Source: an uncultured Chloroflexia bacterium (GTDB taxonomy: Bacteria; Chloroflexota; Limnocylindria; Limnocylindrales; CSP1-4). From it: a DNA stretch of 64,000 nt. The notes below the pieces were generated by a model, which had not been told where the DNA came from, did no database searches, and saw only the letters and a program-made list of their open reading frames with translations. Numbering within the stretch: position 1 is the stretch's first letter; each line of letters opens with the position of its first letter. The stretch is taken from contig CAVRGP010000011.1 of NCBI GenBank assembly GCA_963720755.1, forward strand, positions 608,001 to 672,000, read 5' to 3'. Both the position numbers and the translations under genes were made by a program. Of the stretch, positions 42,940-52,216 are shown piece by piece.

Positions 42940-43640
42940 CACCGGTCGAAGCGGTCATCTTCGACCTGGATGGTGTCCTCGTCGACTCCGAGATCTGGTG
43001 GGACGAGATCCGGATCGCCTTCGCCGCGCGCTACGGCCGGTCATGGGGTCGGGCTGACCAGGCAGCCGTCATGGGGGCCAACTCGGCCGCCTGGGCGCGG
43101 ATCATGCGTGAACGTCTCGACCTTGATCTCGATGGATCCATGATCGAGCGCGAGATCGTCGACAGCGTGGTCGACCGATATCGGCGGGAAGGCCCACCGG
43201 TCATCCCCGGGGCGGCCGAGACCGTGCGCCGGATCGCCGGCGGCTGGCCGGTCGCCCTCGCGTCATCCGCCCACCCCGCGGTCATCGCGGCCGCCCTGGA
43301 CGCGAGTGGTTTGACGGACGTGCTGCGCGTCGCCGTCTCGTCCGATGAGGTCGCCCACGGGAAGCCGGCTCCGGATGTCTACCTCGAAGCCGCTCGCCGT
43401 CTCGACGTCCGCCCGGCCGGTTGTCTCGTCATCGAGGACTCGTTCAACGGCGTCCGCGCCGGCAAGGCTGCCGGGATGACGGTCGCCCTCGTGCCGAACG
43501 CAAGCGTGCCGCCCGCCCCGGGCACCGCGGACCTGGCCGACGTCGTGCTGGAGCGGCTGGCCGACCTGGACCCTGCCGCGATCGCGGCCGAACCTGCCCC
43601 TGGCGTGGCGGGTCTGGCATACTTCGACCGGCCCGACTGA
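42936..43640 (+). CDS. HAD-family phosphatase
   Basis: FDLDGVLVDSE, GKPAPDVY, EDSFNG. Confidence 0.9.
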   Translation: MTPVEAVIFDLDGVLVDSEIWWDEIRIAFAARYGRSWGRADQAAVMGANSAAWARIMRERLDLDLDGSMIEREIVDSVVDRYRREGPPVIPGAAETVRRIAGGWPVALASSAHPAVIAAALDASGLTDVLRVAVSSDEVAHGKPAPDVYLEAARRLDVRPAGCLVIEDSFNGVRAGKAAGMTVALVPNASVPPAPGTADLADVVLERLADLDPAAIAAEPAPGVAGLAYFDRPD

Positions 43641-43652
43641 GCAGGAGGAACC

Positions 43653-44018
43653 GTGGCTGCGACCGGCCTTTCCGCAGATCCGACCGAATACCGAGCACGG
43701 CTCGCCGACCAGGATGACGAGCAGATCGACGCCTGGACGGCGGAGTTGATGCGGGATGTCGTCATCCGGCGGGGGATCGTGAAAGTCGTCGACGATTTCC
43801 GGCGCGCCACCCGACTCGATGAACCCGGATTCGAACGCGTGTTCGCTTCTGGGGGTGGACCCCCGGCTGTGATCGGTCGAGACCGGGCTGGACGACTGGT
43901 GGTGCCGGCGACGACGCTGTTCGCCCTCGTGCCCGGGATCCGAGCGCAGGTGCCCGACGGGCGCGAGCGACTGATCGAATACCTGGCCGAGAACTTCGAC
44001 GAGATCGTCTACGTCTGA
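43653..44018 (+). CDS. Hypothetical protein
   Basis: AGGAGG SD, GTG start, operonic position. Confidence 0.7.
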   Translation: MAATGLSADPTEYRARLADQDDEQIDAWTAELMRDVVIRRGIVKVVDDFRRATRLDEPGFERVFASGGGPPAVIGRDRAGRLVVPATTLFALVPGIRAQVPDGRERLIEYLAENFDEIVYV

Positions 44019-44859
44019 GCGGGGAGTCGGTGGCCTGATCCGGCTGATCCACCCCTTTCCCTCGATCCTCGACGGTGTCGTCGTCGCCGCGGTCGCGCTG
44101 GTGGCCGGTGCTGACACCGGTACCGCGTTCCGGCTCGCTGTCTCCATGGTGGCCCTGCAGGGCTCGATCGGCGCCCTCAACGACCTGATCGACGCGAGGA
44201 CCGATGCCGAGCAGAAGCCGGGCAAGCCGATCCCCGCCGGTTCGGTCAGCACCCAGGGCGCCGGCGTCGTCGTCATCGTCGGCGCGGCCGTGGGACTTGG
44301 CCTCGCGCTCCCGTCCGGTCCCGCGCTTGTCGTCCTGGCCGTGATCGGCCTCGCGATCGGCTACGGCTACGACCTTCGTTTCAAGGGCACGGCCTGGTCC
44401 TGGGTGCCGTTCGCGGGCGGGATCCCACTCCTGCCCATCTACGGCTGGCTCGGGGTGACGGGGTCGATGGCCCCCTGGTTCATGATCCTCGTGCCCCTCG
44501 CCGTGGTCGCGGGAAGCGCACTGGCGGTGGCCAACGCCCGCGCGGATGCCGATCGCGACCGGTCGGCCGGGCTTGACTCGGTGGCCATCCGCCTCGGTCC
44601 CGATCGATCGTGGTCGGTCAACGCGGCGTTGCTTGCCGTGGTGGTCGTGGTCGCGGTCGGGTCATCGGTCGTCAGCGGGGCGCCATGGCCGGCTGTCCTC
44701 GGGGCCGGGGCCGGCGCCCTGGTGGTGGCCGTCGGCGTGGTGGTCGGCCGGTCGTCGGACCCACATCGACAGGAGCTTGCGTGGGAGGTCGAGGCGATCG
44801 GGCTCGGGATCCTCGCGACCGGTTGGCTGGCGGGCGCGGTGACGGCCGGACTCGCCTGA
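44011..44859 (+). CDS. UbiA-family prenyltransferase (start uncertain: ACG 44011 or GTG 44101)
   Basis: LIHPFPS, NDLIDARTD..KP.KPIP, second acidic motif NARADADRD. Confidence 0.75.
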   Translation, partial: TSERGVGGLIRLIHPFPSILDGVVVAAVALVAGADTGTAFRLAVSMVALQGSIGALNDLIDARTDAEQKPGKPIPAGSVSTQGAGVVVIVGAAVGLGLALPSGPALVVLAVIGLAIGYGYDLRFKGTAWSWVPFAGGIPLLPIYGWLGVTGSMAPWFMILVPLAVVAGSALAVANARADADRDRSAGLDSVAIRLGPDRSWSVNAALLAVVVVVAVGSSVVSGAPWPAVLGAGAGALVVAVGVVVGRSSDPHRQELAWEVEAIGLGILATGWLAGAVTAGLA

Positions 44860-44869
44860 CCGTCCTCGG

Positions 44870-45907
44870 TCAGTACCCGGCGTCGTCGCTTCTGACGAGG
44901 GCGATCGCGTTCTCGAGTCGGAGCTTCGCGATGGTCAGGTACTTGGCGAGGTTCGCCCGGTCTGTCGCTCCGATGGCCCCACGGACCTCCGGGCTCGCCA
45001 GGACCCCGACCAACTCCTCGACCGCATCGGCCAGGCCCTGCTTGGCGACCACGAGCGAGTCGTCGCCGATGAGTCGTGGCGCGGCGTCGTCCGAGCGCCA
45101 GGTCGGCCCTTCCGACGACTCGGCTTCGCTCGGGGTCGTGTCCGCCGAGTCGATCTCGTCACTGATGGCGATCTCCATCGTGGGATCGGCGACGGCATCC
45201 TGCCGCGGTCGGCGTCCCTCGATCTTGTCTCGAAGCTTGATCAGGGTCAGCTCGCCTCGGGCGACCTGCTCCGCAAGGCGACGCCGCTTCCTCGGGTCGG
45301 TCACCTTCATCAGCTCGTACGCATGCGACAGACTGTCCTTGCGCAAAGACACGAGTTCGCGGACCTCGGGCGGCGCGTCCGCGAGCCGGAGCCGGTTCTC
45401 GAGATAGCCCTTGTCCTTGCCCAGCTTGTCGGCGAGCTTGCGGATGCTGTAGCCATGCTCGTGGACCATTCGGTCGTACATGGCCGCTTCATCGAGCGGC
45501 GTGAGGTCCTCTCGCTGGAGGTTTTCGATGATCGCGATCTCGAGGGCCGTGTCGTCGTCGATCTCCTCGATGAGGGCCGGGATCGTGGTCAAGCCGGCCT
45601 GCCGTGAGGCTCGCCACCGACGTTCGCCGGCGACGATCTGGTAGGTATTGGGACCGAGCGGTCGGACGAGGATCGGTTGGAGGACGCCGTGCTCCCGGAT
45701 CGATGCCGACAGTTCGTCGAGGGCATCCTGTTCGAAGAGCATCCGCGGTTGTTCCGGGTTCGGTTCGATATGGTCGATCGGAACGACGCGAACACCGACC
45801 GACCGGGTCGGGCTGTCGGGCGTCAGCAGGCTGACGATGGCGGGGGAGAGGGCCGTGTCCTCGGACAGGCGTCGGGCGGCTGCCGCGCGGAAATCAGTGC
45901 GAGCCAA
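44870..45907 (-). CDS. parB: ParB/Spo0J partition protein
   Basis: PNPEQPR, GVLQPILVR, GERRWRA, ENLQREDL, HTH. Confidence 0.92.
   Translation of the reverse strand: MARTDFRAAAARRLSEDTALSPAIVSLLTPDSPTRSVGVRVVPIDHIEPNPEQPRMLFEQDALDELSASIREHGVLQPILVRPLGPNTYQIVAGERRWRASRQAGLTTIPALIEEIDDDTALEIAIIENLQREDLTPLDEAAMYDRMVHEHGYSIRKLADKLGKDKGYLENRLRLADAPPEVRELVSLRKDSLSHAYELMKVTDPRKRRRLAEQVARGELTLIKLRDKIEGRRPRQDAVADPTMEIAISDEIDSADTTPSEAESSEGPTWRSDDAAPRLIGDDSLVVAKQGLADAVEELVGVLASPEVRGAIGATDRANLAKYLTIAKLRLENAIALVRSDDAGY
45335..45350. repeat. 16-bp palindrome copy 1 (candidate parS), inside parB
   Basis: GTCCTTGCGCAAAGAC. Confidence 0.6.
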
Positions 45908-46664
45908 GTTCGATCACCTCCCGGGCAAGCTGGCGATACGTCCTCGCCGCGTCCGTGTTGCTGGCATACGTCGTGATCGGCCGTCCGACCAGTGGCGCCT
46001 CGCCCAACTTGACCGTGTTCCGAACGATGCTCGTGAAGACGTGGTGATCGCCGACGGTCCGCAGTTCCTCGAGCATGTCCTTGGCCAGATTGGTCCGTCC
46101 GTCAAAGAACGTCGGCAACAAGCCGAGGATCCGGAGGTCGCGATTCAGTTTGAGGCGGATGGCGTTGATGACCTTGACCAGGTTGTTGAGGCCCTTCATC
46201 GCGTAGTACTGCGTCTGGACCGGGATGATGACCCCGTCGGATGCGACCAGCCCGTTCACCGTCAGCAGGCCGAGGTTCGGCGGGCAATCGATGAGGACGT
46301 AGTCGTACACCGCGATCTGCCCATCGAACGCTTCACGCAGGATGCCCTCGCGGCCGAGTGCCGTGAACAGTTCGCCTTCTGTGGAAGCCAGGTCGATGTG
46401 TGCCGGGGCGACGTCGATGCCTTCTGTCCCCGTGGCGATGATCACGTCGCTGAGTGACGACCGACCATCGGCCAGTACATCGGCCATCGACTGCTCGACC
46501 GTATTGAGGTTGATGCCGAGCCCGGCGGTCAGGTTTGCCTGCGGATCCATGTCGACGCACAGGATCCGGTACCCCTCTTCCGCAAGCGCGCCGGCCAGAT
46601 TGATCGCCGTCGTGGTCTTGCCGACCCCGCCCTTCTGATTGGCGATCGCGATCACGTTCGTCAC
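45894..46664 (-). CDS. parA: ParA/Soj ATPase
   Basis: [29 protein letters not shown]. Confidence 0.93.
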
Positions 46665-46768
46665 CTGGGCTGCACCTCAAGTTGTCGTGGAGGCGGCACA
46701 TCGGCCGTCGGGTCCCGGAATGGATTCGTGCCATGGTACCCCCGCGGCGTGCACCCAGGGCACCCTGG

Positions 46769-46811
46769 TTATCCACACGCTTTGGAAGTTGTTCACCGAA
46801 TTTGTGGATAT
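46769..46811. promoter_or_regulatory. DnaA boxes upstream of parA
   Basis: Perfect TTATCCACA 46769-46777; TGTGGATAT (1 mismatch, opposite strand) 46803-46811. Confidence 0.6.
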
Positions 46812-46856
46812 CCCGAACGTCGCAAGTGGGGCGGTCGGGGCAGATATGATGGTCGC

Positions 46857-46872
46857 GTCCTTGCGCAAAGAC
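46857..46872. repeat. 16-bp palindrome copy 2 (candidate parS)
   Basis: GTCCTTGCGCAAAGAC in parA/pccB intergenic region. Confidence 0.6.
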
Positions 46873-46895
46873 AGTCGATAAGGAGCGCCGAACGC

Positions 46896-48440
46896 GTGTC
46901 GACGAACGCTGAACGGTTCGCACGCCTGGATGCGATGCGCGCGTCGTCACGATCGGGTGGCGGTGTCGCGCGGGTCAAACGGCAACATGATGCAGGCAAG
47001 TTGACTGCTCGGGAGCGCCTGGAGCTGCTGCTCGATCCGGGCTCCTTCGTCGAACTCGGTGCGTTCGTGATGAACCGTGATCCAGGCAAGTCCGGATCGT
47101 TCCTTGGCGATGGCGTCGTGACGGGTCACGGCGAGATCGATGGCCGAACAGTCTTCGTCTTCAGCCAGGACTTCACGATCTTCGGAGGCTCCTTGTCGGA
47201 GGCCTACGCCGAGAAGATCTGCAAGGTGATGGATCTGGCGACGCGGGTCGGGGCGCCGATCATCGGCCTGAACGATTCGGGCGGCGCCCGGATCCAGGAA
47301 GGGGTCGTCTCGCTCGGCGGATATGCGGATATCTTCCTGCGCAACGTGCTGGCGTCCGGGGTCGTGCCACAGATCTCGGTCGTCCTCGGACCATGCGCCG
47401 GTGGCGCGGTCTATTCGCCGGCGATCACGGACTTCACGATCATGGCCGAGACAACGAGCTACATGTTCGTCACCGGACCAGGTGTGGTGAAGACCGTGAC
47501 CCACGAGGATGTCGATGCGGAGTTCCTCGGCGGCGCGGTGACTCACACCACGCGCAGCGGAGTCGCCCATTTCGCCGCACCCGATGAAGCCCATGCGCTC
47601 GACACGGTTCGCGACCTGCTCGCCTATCTGCCGCAGAACAACATCTCGTCGCCGCCGATCGTGGCGACCCAGGACCCGACCGATCGGGCCGATGTGTCGC
47701 TCGACTCCATCGTCCCGGACGATCCCCGGATGCCGTACGACATGCATGACGTCATCGAGCCGATCATCGATGACCGGGTCTTCCTGGAGGTGCAGCCTGA
47801 TTGGGCGCAGAACATCATCATCGGTTTCGCGCGCCTGGGTGGCCGAAGCGTCGGCGTCGTTGCGCAGCAACCGGCGGTCCTCGCTGGCGCCCTGGATATC
47901 GATGCGTCGGTCAAGGCCGCCAGGTTCGTCCGAACCTGTGATGCGTTCAATGTGCCGCTCGTCACGTTCGTCGATGTGCCGGGGTTCCTGCCGGGCGTGG
48001 ACCAGGAGCACGGGGGCATCATCCGACACGGGGCAAAACTGCTGTACGCGTACGCGGAAGCGACCGTACCCAAACTGACAGTCATCACACGCAAGGCGTA
48101 TGGGGGCGCCTATGACGTCATGAGCAGCAAGCACATCCGCGGGGACATGAATCTCGCCTGGCCGACGGCAGAGATCGCGGTGATGGGCGCGGAAGGGGCG
48201 GTCAATATCATCTACAAGGATGCGATCGCGAACGCCGCCGACCCGGAAGCGGAACGCGAACGACTCGTCTCGGAGTACCGCACCGAGTTCGCGAACCCAT
48301 TCATCGCGGCGGCCCGGGGGTACGTCGACGACGTGATCAAACCTTCTGAGACCCGACCTCGATTGATCCGCGCGCTCGCTCTGTTGGCGGACAAGCGCGA
48401 CAGCAACCCGCGCAAGAAGCATGGCAACATCCCGCTTTGA
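46896..48440 (+). CDS. pccB: Acyl-CoA (propionyl-CoA) carboxylase beta subunit
   Basis: [53 protein letters not shown]. Confidence 0.92.
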
Positions 48441-48458
48441 CCTGGCAGCGGGCAAGCC

Positions 48459-48474
48459 GTCTTTGCGCAAAGAC
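48459..48474. repeat. 16-bp perfect palindrome copy 3 (candidate parS)
   Basis: GTCTTTGCGCAAAGAC (18 bp with C/G flanks), intergenic. Confidence 0.6.
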
Positions 48475-48486
48475 GCGGGCAGCTGG

Positions 48487-50055
48487 ATGACGGGCCAGGT
48501 CCGTCCGTTCGAGCGCGTCCTGATCGCCAACCGAGGTGAGATCGCCGTGCGGATCATCCGCGCGTGCCGGGACCTCGGGATGGAATCGGTCGCGGTGTAC
48601 AGCGACGCGGACGTGGACGCCCGACATGTTCGGATGGCCGATCGGTCCGTGCGGATCGGCCCGGCACAGCCATCGGAGAGCTACCTTCGGATCGAGGCGA
48701 TCACCGAAGCCGCGGTCGCCAACGATGTCGACGCGATCCATCCGGGTTACGGGTTCCTGTCAGAGCGGGCAGCCTTCGCCCGCGCAGTCGAGGATGCAGG
48801 TATCGCGTTCGTCGGTCCGCCATCGGCTGCCATCGATGCGCTCGGGGACAAATTGCACGCCCGGCGGGTCGCTCGGTCGGTCGGCGTCGCCGCGGTGCCG
48901 GGTACGATCGATCCAGCAGCGGTCGAGCGCGCCGACCAGGTCGACGCGATCGTCGCCACGGCGGAGGAGATCGGGTTCCCGCTGCTGGTCAAGGCGGCGG
49001 CCGGCGGCGGTGGTCGTGGCATGCGCCGCGTCGCTGATGCGGCGGGGTTGCCGGCGGCACTCGCCGCCGGGGCGGCGGAGGCGCAGGCGGCCTTCGGTGA
49101 TGGAGCGGTCTATCTCGAGCGAGAACTGCGCCCGGCCAGGCATATCGAAGTCCAGCTCCTCGCTGATACCGCCGGCCAGGTGGTGGCGATCGGGGAGCGG
49201 GACTGCTCGCTGCAACGGCGTCATCAGAAGCTCCTCGAGGAGGCGCCGGCGCCAGGACTGTCGGGCGAGGAGCGCCGACACCTCCATGAACTCGCGGTAC
49301 GGCTTGCGGACGCGGCCGGCCTGCAGAATGCGGCCACGGCCGAATTCCTGCGAACCCCGGACGGCGCGTTCTACTTCCTTGAGGTCAATACGCGGCTGCA
49401 GGTCGAGCACGGCGTGACCGAGCTCGTGACCGGGCTCGACATCGTCAAGGAGCAGTTCTGGCTCGCCGCCGGATACCCGATCTCGCCCGCCGTGCTGAGG
49501 GCCGCCGACGCCGCCACGAACCCGGGCCGGCACGCCATCGAAGTCCGTGTCGCGGCGGAGGATCCCGGCCGAGACTTCGCGCCGGCTCCCGGCGTGGTCA
49601 CCCGATGGACGATGCCGGCCGGCCCCGGGGTCCGAGTCGATACGGGGATCGGATGGGGCGACCGCGTCCCGCCGGAGTACGACAACCTGATCGCCAAGAT
49701 CCTGACCGATGCGGGGGATCGGAATGGTACGATCGATGCCCTGAGGCGCGCACTCGATGAGACCGAGATCGGCGGCTTCCAGACGACCCTGCCGTTCCAT
49801 CGCTTCGTGGCTCGACACGCAGGGTTCCGGGCCGGCGATCTCTCGATCGATTGGGTCGCCGAGCATTGGGACGGCGCCGGAGAACGAGCCCAGGTCGCCC
49901 ACGAGGCGGCGGCTGCTGCCGCGGCTGCCTTCGCGGGTGACGGCCGGTTCGGAGGTGCGGCCGGCCCGGGCGCCGAACCCGGGCCCGGGGCAGCCCTCAG
50001 CGCGGAGTGGGGGAGGCGCGGCCGAATGGACGCCGTCGACCGGTGGCCCCGATGA
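48487..50055 (+). CDS. accC: Biotin carboxylase subunit
   Basis: ANRGEIA, HPGYGFLSE, GGGGRGM, RDCSLQRRHQK, EVNTRLQVEH. Confidence 0.9.
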   Translation: MTGQVRPFERVLIANRGEIAVRIIRACRDLGMESVAVYSDADVDARHVRMADRSVRIGPAQPSESYLRIEAITEAAVANDVDAIHPGYGFLSERAAFARAVEDAGIAFVGPPSAAIDALGDKLHARRVARSVGVAAVPGTIDPAAVERADQVDAIVATAEEIGFPLLVKAAAGGGGRGMRRVADAAGLPAALAAGAAEAQAAFGDGAVYLERELRPARHIEVQLLADTAGQVVAIGERDCSLQRRHQKLLEEAPAPGLSGEERRHLHELAVRLADAAGLQNAATAEFLRTPDGAFYFLEVNTRLQVEHGVTELVTGLDIVKEQFWLAAGYPISPAVLRAADAATNPGRHAIEVRVAAEDPGRDFAPAPGVVTRWTMPAGPGVRVDTGIGWGDRVPPEYDNLIAKILTDAGDRNGTIDALRRALDETEIGGFQTTLPFHRFVARHAGFRAGDLSIDWVAEHWDGAGERAQVAHEAAAAAAAAFAGDGRFGGAAGPGAEPGPGAALSAEWGRRGRMDAVDRWPR

Positions 50056-50525
50056 CCCGGCTCCGAGTCACCGACCGGGTAAGCGGCGAGGTCCTCCTCG
50101 ATGACGAGGTCGATGGCGATGACCACGGGATCATCTCTCGGCCCGATGTCCGCGCAGTCGTCCTCCCGCTCACATCGTCGGGCATGCGTGGCCGGTCGGC
50201 AGTCGAGGTCGTCGTCGAGGGTTGGCGCTTCGAGCTGGAGGTCGAGGACGCGTCGATCGCCGACCTGCGCAGGCGTGCGACAAGCGAGCGAACCGGGTCC
50301 AGCGACCACGGCCCGATCGAGGTTCGTGCCATCATCCCTGGACGAGTCGTCTCGATCGCCGTGGAGATCGGCTCATCCGTGGAACAGGGGCAGCGGCTCC
50401 TTGCCGTGGAGGCGATGAAGATGGAGAACGAGTTGCGTGCGCCGCGGGCCGGGGTCGTCGAGCGCGTGGCGGTCGTCGTCGGGCAGAACATCGAGCTCGG
50501 AGAGATCCTGGTGGTGCTGCGATGA
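50052..50525 (+). CDS. Biotin carboxyl carrier protein
   Basis: EAMKMEN biotinylation motif. Confidence 0.9.
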
Positions 50526-52216
50526 CTGGATCGTCGAGGCCGGATCGCCGAGTCGGGGAGGCGTCGGACCCGGGCCGCGAGCGTTGGCGGGAAACCGTCC
50601 GAGCCCGCGCGCTCAAGGGCGCCCCGGAACGGCGTGAGGCATTCGAGACAAGCTCCGGCCTCGTCATCCGTGACCTCTACACCGCGGCGGACACGGCGGC
50701 CATCGACGAGGATCGCGACCTCGGGCGTCCGGGGGACTATCCGTTCACGCGCGGCGTCCAGCCGACGATGTACCGGAGCCGCTTCTGGACGATGCGCCAG
50801 TACGCGGGGTTCGCCACTGCCGAGGAGACCAACGAGCGGTTCCGCTACCTTCTGGCCCAGGGCCAGACCGGCCTGAGCGTGGCGTTCGACCTGCCGACCC
50901 AGATGGGCTACGACTCGGATGCACCGGATGCCGAAGGGGAAGTCGGCCGGGTCGGCGTCCCGATCTCGAGTCTGGCCGACATGGCGGTCCTGCTCGACAG
51001 CCTGCCGCTCGGCGAGGTCAGCACATCGATGACCATCAACGCCACGGCCCCGATCCTCCTGGCCCTGTACGTCGCCGCGGCCGAGGCCCAGGGCGTCCCG
51101 CGCGGGTCGATCGCCGGGACGACCCAGAACGACATCCTGAAGGAGTACATCGCCCGCGGGACGTACATCTTCCCGCCGCGCCCGTCGATGCGGCTGGTCA
51201 CCGATGTCTTCGAGTTCTGCGCGGCCGAACTCCCGAAGTGGAACACGATCTCGATCTCCGGCTACCACATGCGCGAGGCGGGCGCGACCGCCGCCCAGGA
51301 ACTCGCGTTCACGCTGGCGGACGCGATCGCCTACGTCGAGGCGGCCGTCGCTCGCGGCCTGGACGTCGACGACTTCGCGGGTCGGTTGTCGTTCTTCTTC
51401 GCGGCCTGGTCGGAGCTGTTCGAGGAGGTCGCCAAGTTCCGGGTCGCCCGACGGATGTGGGCGTTCATCATGAAGGAGCGCTTCGGGGCAACCAACCCGC
51501 GCTCGATGGTCTGTCGGTTCCACGTCCAGACCGCGGGGTCCAGCCTGACCGCCCAATCGGTCGACAACAACGTCGTCCGGACCACGATCCAGGCGCTCGC
51601 CGCGGTGCTCGGGGGCGCCCAGAGCCTCCACACGAACTCCCGGGACGAGGCGCTCGCGCTCCCGACCGAGGAGGCCGCCCGCCTTGCACTTCGGACGCAG
51701 CAGATCCTTGCCCACGAGTCGGGCGTGACCGAGACACCGGATCCATTGGCCGGCTCGTTCTACGTTGAGAGCCTCACCAATGAACTCGAGGCCGCCGCCT
51801 GGGCGTACCTCGACGAGATCGAGTCGATGGGTGGCACGCTGGCCGCCATCGAGGGGGGGTTCCAGCAGCGCCAGATCCAGGAGGCGGCCTATCGCGTGCA
51901 GCGGGCGATCGAGACGGGTGATCAGATCGTGGTCGGAGTCAACCGGTTCCGCGACGACGAGTTCACGACGCCGCCGATCCATCGGATCGACCCGGAAGGG
52001 GAGCGACGCCAGATCGAGCGCGTCCTGCGGGTCCGGGCCGAACGGTCCGGCGCGGACTGGTCCGCCGCCATGGACCGGCTCGAGCAGATCGCTCGAAGCG
52101 ACGGCAACCTGATGCCGCCGATCCTGGAGGCGGTCCGGGCCTATGCGACCGTCGGCGAGATCAGTGACCGGCTCCGGGCCGCGTGGGGCGTGCACCGCGA
52201 ACTGATCACGGTCTGA
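50522..52216 (+). CDS. Methylmalonyl-CoA mutase, catalytic (large) subunit
   Basis: [37 protein letters not shown]; lacks B12-binding domain. Confidence 0.92.

Follow-up and report, generated by a model that had tools for sequence, protein, structure and literature searches.

Chromosomal ParABS systems (Soj/Spo0J-parS, and that of Caulobacter, PDB 6T1F) combine a ParA protein, a ParB protein with ParB_N, helix-turn-helix (HTH) and CTP motifs, and a 16-bp palindrome with T-rich arms and a central CG, found in a few copies around parAB, one of them inside parB. Changes in ParB specificity are known from Noc, plasmid and secondary-replicon systems. Noc, a ParB paralog of the Firmicutes, is not known to have a ParA partner, and it binds at sites scattered around the chromosome. 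Here we analyzed a parA-parB pair in a 64,000-nucleotide stretch of DNA from an uncultured soil bacterium of the class Limnocylindria (Chloroflexota). This stretch, hereafter called the window, corresponds to positions 608001 to 672000 of contig C11 (CAVRGP010000011.1) in an assembly of 15 contigs and 3,010,706 bases with 68% G+C, 93.6% complete. An initial annotation, made from the letters of the window alone, had described a candidate ParABS system with a palindrome of noncanonical sequence as its parS. We found that the copy of this palindrome inside parB is maintained as DNA, and that the genome has a second, canonical ParABS. On somewhat better than even odds, the palindrome (YGTCYTTGCGCAARGACR, 16 to 18 bp) is the own loading site of the paralogous ParB, a private parS.

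Among described systems, chromosomal ParABS is the closest to the window system in sequence and fold, and the features listed above are common to both. The window system differs in the sequence of its palindrome, in the DNA-contact and specificity residues of ParB and, in the predicted structure, in a helical hairpin at the C terminus. Furthermore, it is not origin-proximal, and it shares its chromosome with a canonical ParABS. Noc resembles the window ParB in being a lineage-specific chromosomal duplicate whose DNA specificity has apparently been switched, and it gives the best similarity among PDB and NCBIfam entries. However, the window ParB scored only 191.3 bits with the Noc profile TIGR04285 (cut-off, 315), and it has an adjacent ParA and one cluster of 2 to 5 sites. 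Noc-like scattered sites were rejected, as the three sites of the window lie in one 3.1-kb cluster.

KorB of plasmid RK2 (PDB 8QA8) is a ParB-family clamp with palindromic sites at or near promoters, a possible parallel to the second copy described below; according to the accessible text of the report (PMC11790492), it is plasmid-borne, has many operators and needs a clamp-locking partner, KorA. The ParABS systems of Burkholderiales secondary replicons (Bsr) each have a palindrome of their own, 16 bp long with a central CG and a core of 2C/2G/1A/1T, which prevents cross-reaction between Par systems in the same cell (PMC5450999). However, they belong to separate replicons or an integrated plasmid, whereas here both systems are long-standing on one chromosome. 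Judging from the available text, the dual ParABS of the Streptomyces plasmid SCP1, with two type-I ParB-CTPase systems, is the nearest precedent for two such systems with distinct parS on one replicon (bioRxiv 10.64898/2025.12.10.693275). Unlike SCP1, the replicon here is the main chromosome, and the arrangement is class-wide, with one system at the origin and one in the middle of an arm. By its sequence, the window pair is a member of the ParB-CTPase superfamily. It departs from the canonical chromosomal systems in site and position, from Noc in score, clustered sites and a ParA of its own, and from KorB in the absence of a domain match and in its distance. In its accessible portion, a review names only Noc as a chromosomal ParB paralog (PMC7022226). 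In the open-access literature, we found nothing on ParB of Limnocylindria, nor did we come across any account of an additional chromosomal ParA-ParB pair that has a cluster of sites for itself, is kept class-wide and lies far from the origin, beside a canonical system.

The palindrome and its conservation

The palindrome GTC(C/T)TTGCGCAAAGAC occurred three times in the window (at 45335, 46857 and 48459, without strand), compared with 0.02 copies expected, and this count was equalled in 0 of 100 shuffles. Copy 1 (GTCCTTGCGCAAAGAC, 45335-45350) is located inside parB, from the third base of Val186 to Asp191, and codes for (V)SLRKD. Copy 2 (GTCCTTGCGCAAAGAC, 46857-46872) is found in the intergenic region between the divergent genes parA and pccB. 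It starts 6 bases past a TATGAT hexamer (46845-46850) and ends 23 bases ahead of the pccB start, standing between the hexamer and the pccB ribosome-binding site. Copy 3 (GTCTTTGCGCAAAGAC, 48459-48474) is perfect and lies in the pccB-accC spacer, flanked by the pccB stop codon (48438-48440) and the likeliest accC start, ATG 48487; with an alternative in-frame ATG at 48421, it would fall within the first accC codons. In the whole assembly, these three copies were the only matches with 0, 1 or 2 mismatches, and the 4 further matches with 3 mismatches were unrelated and all on other contigs. The positions, the perfection of the third copy, the coding of VSLRKD by the first and the absence of further copies had all been stated in the initial annotation and were confirmed. 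Its statement that canonical parS is absent was correct for the window, where no site of the TGTTTCACGTGAAACA type was detected with up to 3 mismatches. In the genome, two near-canonical parS are present on contig C2 (see below).

In its 16 bp, the palindrome combines arms rich in T with the six-base core TGCGCA, which is centered on CG. The same design is described in PMC5450999 both for the universal parS and for the private sites on secondary replicons of the Burkholderiales. The palindrome is almost certainly a functional protein-binding site.

We followed the palindrome in relatives with a strict pattern (GTCYTTGCGCAARGAC). A broadened version, with K/M at positions 5 and 12, admitted GC-rich chance matches and was therefore not relied on. 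With at most 1 mismatch, all 24 other genomes of the genus had 3 to 4 copies, compared with 0 to 1 for a reversed control, and among the matches listed, every copy on the same contig as parB was within ~10 kb of it. The in-gene copy was found in 80 of 80 related loci. When the 49 loci with full flanks were considered, site 1 was present in 49, site 2 in 49 (at a syntenic position) and site 3 in 48, and 18 had a fourth site near the end of accC. Once the sites were aligned, positions 1-3, 5-7, 10-12 and 14-16 were almost invariant, with Y at position 0 and R at position 17; the sequence outside these 18 bp was not conserved. The paralogous ParB occurs in five families of the class (f1 to f5, see below). 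Family f4, with a ParB only 50 to 54% identical, displayed the same gene order and 2 to 3 copies at the same places.

The copies were not equally symmetric. Sites 1 and 2 were asymmetric at positions 4/13 in 48/49 and 47/49 loci, respectively, with T/G or C/A at these positions and never C/G, and the deviating arm flipped between lineages. Sites 3 and 4 were mostly perfect (36/48 and 18/18 loci). We infer that one perfect arm is required, the other drifting to a G+C-rich alternative. A naturally asymmetric parS that is maintained as such is known in one case, as far as the available text of PMC5450999 goes. In one locus (L100:3453-6573), all three copies shared a variant arm (a GTAC-type core for TTGC), and Leu188 was changed to Val. 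This could be the result of a concerted change or of gene conversion among the sites. Coming from a single genome, it was set aside as evidence of co-evolution.

The codons under copy 1 were then compared, in 122 distinct parB orthologs, with the use of the same codon at other conserved columns. Val186 was encoded by GTG in 121/122 orthologs, compared with 18% at 12 other conserved Val columns, and Ser187 by TCT or TCC in 119/121, while elsewhere TCT accounts for 1.5% and TCC for 25%. Leu188 was TTG in 103/109 (6.3% elsewhere), Arg189 was CGC in 121/122 (46% elsewhere), and Lys190 was AAA in 75/121 (3.1% elsewhere). Family f3, without the in-gene copy, had ordinary codons at these positions, and its Val codon was GTC in 17/21 cases. 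The sequence of copy 1 is maintained as DNA, not as protein, and this is the strongest single result of the analysis. The in-gene copy is a clean example of a binding site dictating the codon choice, and probably the identity of residues 187-191 as well, in its presumed binder.

The paralogous ParB and the canonical system

The window parB (44870..45907, minus strand) encodes 345 aa with ParB_N and HTH_ParB domains. Its TTG start is conserved, TTG being the first codon in 112/112 orthologs with an aligned first residue. The window parA (45894..46664, minus strand) overlaps the parB start by 14 bases and encodes a Soj-type Walker ATPase of 256 aa (Pfam AAA_31, 209.9 bits; CbiA). ParB scored 126.9 bits with PF02195 (ParB_N; cut-off, 26.3) and 63.2 bits with PF17762 (HTH_ParB; cut-off, 22.6), so that the pair had been correctly recognized as ParA and ParB. 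In 33 orthologs from all five families, the motifs of the CTP pocket, QPR, GERRWRA and ENLQRED, were invariant or nearly so: G94, E95, R96, R97 and R99, E128-E133, P54 and R55 were invariant, and Q53 was at least 90% conserved. The nearest solved relatives were Noc, Caulobacter ParB, Myxococcus ParB and Thermus Spo0J (E values of 1e-43 to 1e-39), and KorB (8QA8) was distant (E = 1.4e-15). The predicted structure matched chain 6t1f_D with a TM-score of 0.81 (target-normalized).

We then examined the residues that read DNA, mapped by a HMMER alignment to 6T1F, with the residue roles given in the accessible part of PMC7383237. At positions 162/172/173/179/184/201/204, the window ParB has I/D/K/R/D/S/Y, compared with Q/S/R/T/A/G/R in Caulobacter ParB. 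The four specificity positions (173/179/184/201) are thus K/R/D/S, as initially annotated, compared with R/T/A/G in Caulobacter and R/T/D/G in the canonical ParB of the same genome. Three of the six contacts listed in that part of PMC7383237 as conserved in both ParB and Noc were also changed (Q162 to I, S172 to D and R204 to Y). Judging from these residues, the window ParB should not read canonical parS.

The C-terminal part of the protein was different as well. No canonical C-terminal domain was found in the window ParB with Pfam. An AlphaFold2 (AF2) model (pLDDT, 79.8) displayed a disordered linker at about residues 236-280, followed by a helical hairpin at residues 282-340 with a pLDDT above 90. 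A two-copy model of residues 276-345 scored 0.57, compared with 0.02 for the best control; among solved one-chain pairs, 20 of 30 attained this score, as did 1 of 23 single chains. The homodimer runs had at least 86% of their contacts in common, with a pLDDT of at least 75. The modeling supports a putative dimerization through the C-terminal hairpin. A Foldseek search with the whole model found only the N-terminal and DNA-binding regions of ParB, Noc and KorB, and nothing for the hairpin.

The paralogous ParAB appears from its distribution to be specific to the class Limnocylindria. A full-length ortholog of the ParB (E ≤1e-55) was present in 145 of the 151 Limnocylindria genomes sampled (5 of them flagged unpublished), representing 35/35 genera and 5 families. 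In a sample drawn from across the phylum, all 22 other members of the class had it, as did the window's own genome. Of 178 other Chloroflexota, only 5 had matches at E ≤1e-45, limited to the N-terminal and HTH parts with 39 to 46% identity. ParA was kept beside ParB in f1, f3, f4, f5 and part of f2. In genus g2 of family f2, with streamlined genomes of ~1.1 Mb, pccB and accC have been lost between parB and the methylmalonyl-CoA mutase gene mcm (L116:9756-12522); the paralogous ParB was present in all its members, some of which had lost the ParA from beside it.

A canonical-type ParB, 35 to 50% identical to the query, was also found in 40 of 41 genomes (the window's own and 40 relatives). In the window's genome, it is a 286-aa protein on contig C2, with a GLGRGL N terminus, a ParB_N domain and the usual C-terminal domain, encoded downstream of its own ParA (C2:89180-91092; L004:7181-9093). 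Two near-canonical parS, CGTTTCACGTGAAACG and TGTTGCACGTGAAACA, lie 35 bp apart upstream of this parA. The ParB proteins of the two pairs are 43% identical over 184 residues, and the ParA proteins are 46% identical. The gene dnaA is located at C2:122828, 33 kb from the canonical parAB. No DnaA-box cluster was seen adjoining dnaA, and one cluster of three boxes with 1 mismatch was observed at C2:427183-427572. With a canonical parAB and its own parS near dnaA, the window pair is therefore a paralog and not the main partition system.

The position of the paralog was determined in long-contig genomes. In 7 of the 10 examined, one contig carried the paralog, dnaA and the canonical parB, and the paralog was 0.8 to 1.7 Mb from the other two, or about 35 to 45% of the (rounded) genome size. 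A second replicon was ruled out on this basis. In a relative with a single contig of 2,086,592 bases, the canonical parB was at 253 kb, dnaA at 275 kb and the paralog at 1,077 kb, a distance of 39% of the contig. Clustering near oriC, which had been proposed as a check, was thus not observed. In the window's genome, neither the cumulative GC skew nor the gene-strand profile had a switch at the locus, the skew being weak in this genome and the profile being based on gene calls from a GC3 heuristic. For this genome, an origin or a terminus at the locus was ruled out accordingly. The window parAB is a mid-replichore locus.

Binder and role of the palindrome

Several lines of evidence led us to favor the paralogous ParB as the binder. 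In two families, the sites are grouped at and near parAB, with one within the parB gene itself. They have the design of parS, and the contact residues of ParB are altered while its clamp apparatus is otherwise intact. In addition, no other conserved DNA-binding or regulator gene was found at the locus in the window and its relatives, and the profiles of ScfR (PF09856) and M78-type (PF06114) regulators had 0 matches in the 93.6%-complete genome, where the near-canonical parS adjoin the other ParAB. The earlier proposal of a new centromere was therefore borne out in part: there is a parS-like element under strong selection and a ParB with altered contacts, but the window system is a second, paralogous one and not the usual centromere system of the chromosome.

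Dimers of the paralogous ParB would nucleate on the 2 to 5 palindrome copies, which are spaced by ~1.5 kb, and would then form closed CTP clamps that slide along the parB-parA-pccB-accC(-mcm) stretch of ~3 to 6 kb. The paralogous ParA would act on the resulting ParB-DNA complex, with the positioning of a mid-replichore locus as the outcome. Since copy 2 stands between the -10-like box and the pccB start, the divergent promoters of parAB and of pccB-accC-mcm might also be damped in the manner of KorB. The role could thus be that of a partition-like complex positioned by ParA, that of a KorB-like silencer of the pccB-accC-mcm and parAB promoters, or both. In its full form, our reading is that two orthogonal ParABS coexist on one chromosome, the class-specific one having a private parS and a new ParB dimerization domain, marking and actively positioning a mid-replichore locus and possibly being coupled to DnaA through neighboring DnaA boxes. 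We give this full reading, tentatively, a probability of roughly 35%.

If it is true, a single bacterial chromosome would have two centromeres, the locus being the second one. Binding of the palindrome by the ParB, if it occurs, would provide a natural third specificity class beside parS and the Noc site for studies on the evolution of recognition, and a new orthogonal ParB/parS pair for DNA-labeling tools. The question would then be why a mid-arm locus needs a partition complex of its own.

A number of observations weigh against the palindrome being a private parS of this ParB. The motif does not always adjoin the ParB, although the five families have one and the same recognition helix, GKDKGY-ENRLRL. 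In families f3 and f5, parAB is beside a tRNA gene, away from the pcc genes; the motif was absent within 10 kb on either side of parAB in 5 loci with up to 3 mismatches, and a search of 21 loci from -3.5 to +3 kb revealed no conserved palindrome. In the 21 genomes of genus g2, 23 motif matches with at most 2 mismatches were found, compared with 14 for the control, and there was no signal above control. De novo palindrome and k-mer searches near parAB in g2 and f3/f5 gave only GC-rich coding palindromes, and a codon scan of the f3 parB detected no constrained stretch. The strict motif was nevertheless present in 21 of 41 f3 genomes (the control was nonzero in 1 of the 41, and one of the 41 is flagged unpublished), but in clusters around genes for a UvrD/PD-(D/E)XK helicase, pepA (M17) and a major facilitator superfamily (MFS) transporter (L209:1462-6519, L210:4134-9068, L211:5345-9595, L212:3377-3421 and L213:7051-7066), with one copy inside the helicase gene. 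Genus g23 had three copies there 2.4 to 2.6 kb apart, one genome two copies 29 bp apart, and another one perfect copy. In the only f3 genome with both on one contig, the helicase-locus cluster was ~50 kb from parAB; in f1 and f4, the helicase ortholog is ~0.5 Mb from parAB. Furthermore, a copy at the 5' end of pccB and copies at the gene junctions of the operon would equally suit an ordinary repressor. The co-variation of ParB residues 187-191 with the motif was set aside: the codons of these residues make up the motif itself, so that the co-variation adds no independent evidence. Finally, we know of no rationale for a mid-chromosome centromere next to a working origin-proximal one.

These distributions also bear on whether the motif follows parAB or the pcc genes. 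In genus g5, parB-parA is next to mcm, without pccB and accC, and the in-gene and parA-upstream copies were retained. Conversely, the pccB-accC-mcm-epimerase clusters of three f3 genomes had no copy, apart from one match with 3 mismatches in a second mcm gene. Together with the g2 pattern, this indicates that the motif does not track pcc, nor is it strictly tied to a place next to parAB. The proposed co-occurrence of motif and ParB therefore stood for f1 and f4, where the motif is at parAB, and failed for two lineages (f2 and f3/f5) with the ParB and no adjoining motif; the concern that the motif might track the pcc genes was dispelled. As far as the sequences indicate, the motif is a one-cluster-per-genome element in three of the five families carrying the paralog.

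We considered other explanations for the palindrome. The first one is that ParB binds it mainly as a KorB-like, CTP-dependent silencer or autoregulator of the neighboring promoters, with ParA accessory or vestigial. KorB is a clamp of the ParB family that represses promoters from its sites, as the available part of PMC11790492 describes, and the placement of copy 2 relative to pccB, the spacing of the sites by ~1.5 kb along one operon and the persistence of ParB without its ParA in part of genus g2 would fit such a role. In the three Atlas clusters that match best, which are probably the window ParB's own family, 27 to 87% of the members also have a weak match to the KorB domain. However, the KorB domain (PF08535) had no match in the window ParB itself at E ≤0.001, and the protein is much more similar to ParB and Noc (E = 1e-43) than to KorB (1e-15). 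In addition, ParA is retained beside ParB in f1, f3, f4, f5 and part of f2, the f3 sites are unlinked to pcc and ~50 kb from parAB, and a KorA/TrbA-like partner did not turn up, no systematic search having been made for one. We therefore regard a mainly KorB-like role as unlikely, though worth keeping in mind.

The second one, which was the main alternative from the start, is that the palindrome is an operator of an ordinary transcription factor controlling pccB-accC-mcm, from propionyl-CoA to succinyl-CoA, the divergent parAB being incidental. Besides the location of copy 2 between TATGAT and the pccB ribosome-binding site, its far edge is 11 to 20 nt from the position aligned with window position 46887 in most of the loci listed that matched pccB (in a few, the gap reaches ~53 nt), whereas the spacing to parA differs by ~90 nt within the genus. 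Copies 3 and 4 stand at junctions of the same operon, and the ParB orthologs of f2 and f3/f5 lack an adjoining motif. Regulators of short-chain acyl-CoA metabolism from the ScfR family bind a similar AT-rich half-site. Yet a pcc operator would not explain why rare codons keep one copy inside parB across 122 orthologs, nor why genus g5 retains the sites without pccB and accC. In f3, the pcc cluster is site-free in 3 genomes, and the motif is at the unrelated helicase/pepA/MFS locus. In f4, copy 2 is in the middle of the intergenic region, ~120 to 135 nt from both starts. An ScfR/PccR operator was rejected, because no such regulator, nor an M78-type one, was found in the 93.6%-complete genome. 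No regulator gene is conserved at the locus. Therefore, an ordinary operator appears quite improbable.

The intergenic region also has a trio of DnaA-box-like sequences (46769-46811, without strand), 45 to 100 bp from copy 2. It consists of a perfect TTATCCACA (46769-46777), a near-box TTGTTCACC (46789-46797) and an inverted near-box TGTGGATAT (46803-46811). Over 40 aligned genus-level loci, its columns were more than 90% conserved, and the perfect TTATCCACA box is one of only 3 in the genome. In family f4, a single perfect box was found ~19 to 20 bp from copy 2 in 6 of 7 loci. No DnaA box was present near parAB in f2, f3 or f5. The pattern suggests that DnaA also acts at the parA-pccB intergenic region. 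That the locus is above all a replication-linked control element, in which the trio, the paralogous ParAB and its sites would couple DnaA availability to ParA/ParB by titrating DnaA, by DnaA regulation or even as a secondary origin, is very improbable, since there are only 1 to 3 boxes and none in the f3 motif clusters, no GC-skew or gene-strand switch (so that it is not an origin), and boxes would account for the regulation of parAB, not for the palindrome.

Neighboring genes and intergenic elements

Divergent from parAB are three genes on the plus strand. The first one, pccB (46896..48440), encodes a carboxyltransferase subunit (Pfam Carboxyl_trans, 653.6 bits), and its start was placed at GTG 46896, behind AAGGAG (46880-46885). 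It is followed by an accC-type biotin carboxylase gene (48487..50055; CPSase_L_D2, Biotin_carb_N and Biotin_carb_C) and by mcm, the longest open reading frame (ORF) of which covers 50222..52216 (MM_CoA_mutase, 748.1 bits). As the mutase domain begins at residue 142, the true mcm start is probably further downstream. Beyond mcm, we found a glyoxalase-family (epimerase-like) gene and then sucDC.

Upstream of pccB, the -10-like hexamer TATGAT (46845..46850, plus strand) was conserved in most aligned relatives. A scan of the parA-pccB intergenic region with the consensus sigma-70 promoter gave no full match, a result that carries no information in this phylum. Another conserved block, resembling GCCATGGTAC, was observed in this region at about 46725-46745, at a distance of ~65 to 80 bp upstream from the start of parA, and could represent the -10 element of the parA promoter on the minus strand.

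Downstream of parB, there are a 337-aa ORF without a Pfam family (43263-44276, minus strand) and a UbiA prenyltransferase gene (44101-44859, plus strand). The two overlap as listed, so one of the starts is probably wrong. Both adjoin parB in genus g4 (L158), and one or the other does so in genus g5 (L159 and L160).

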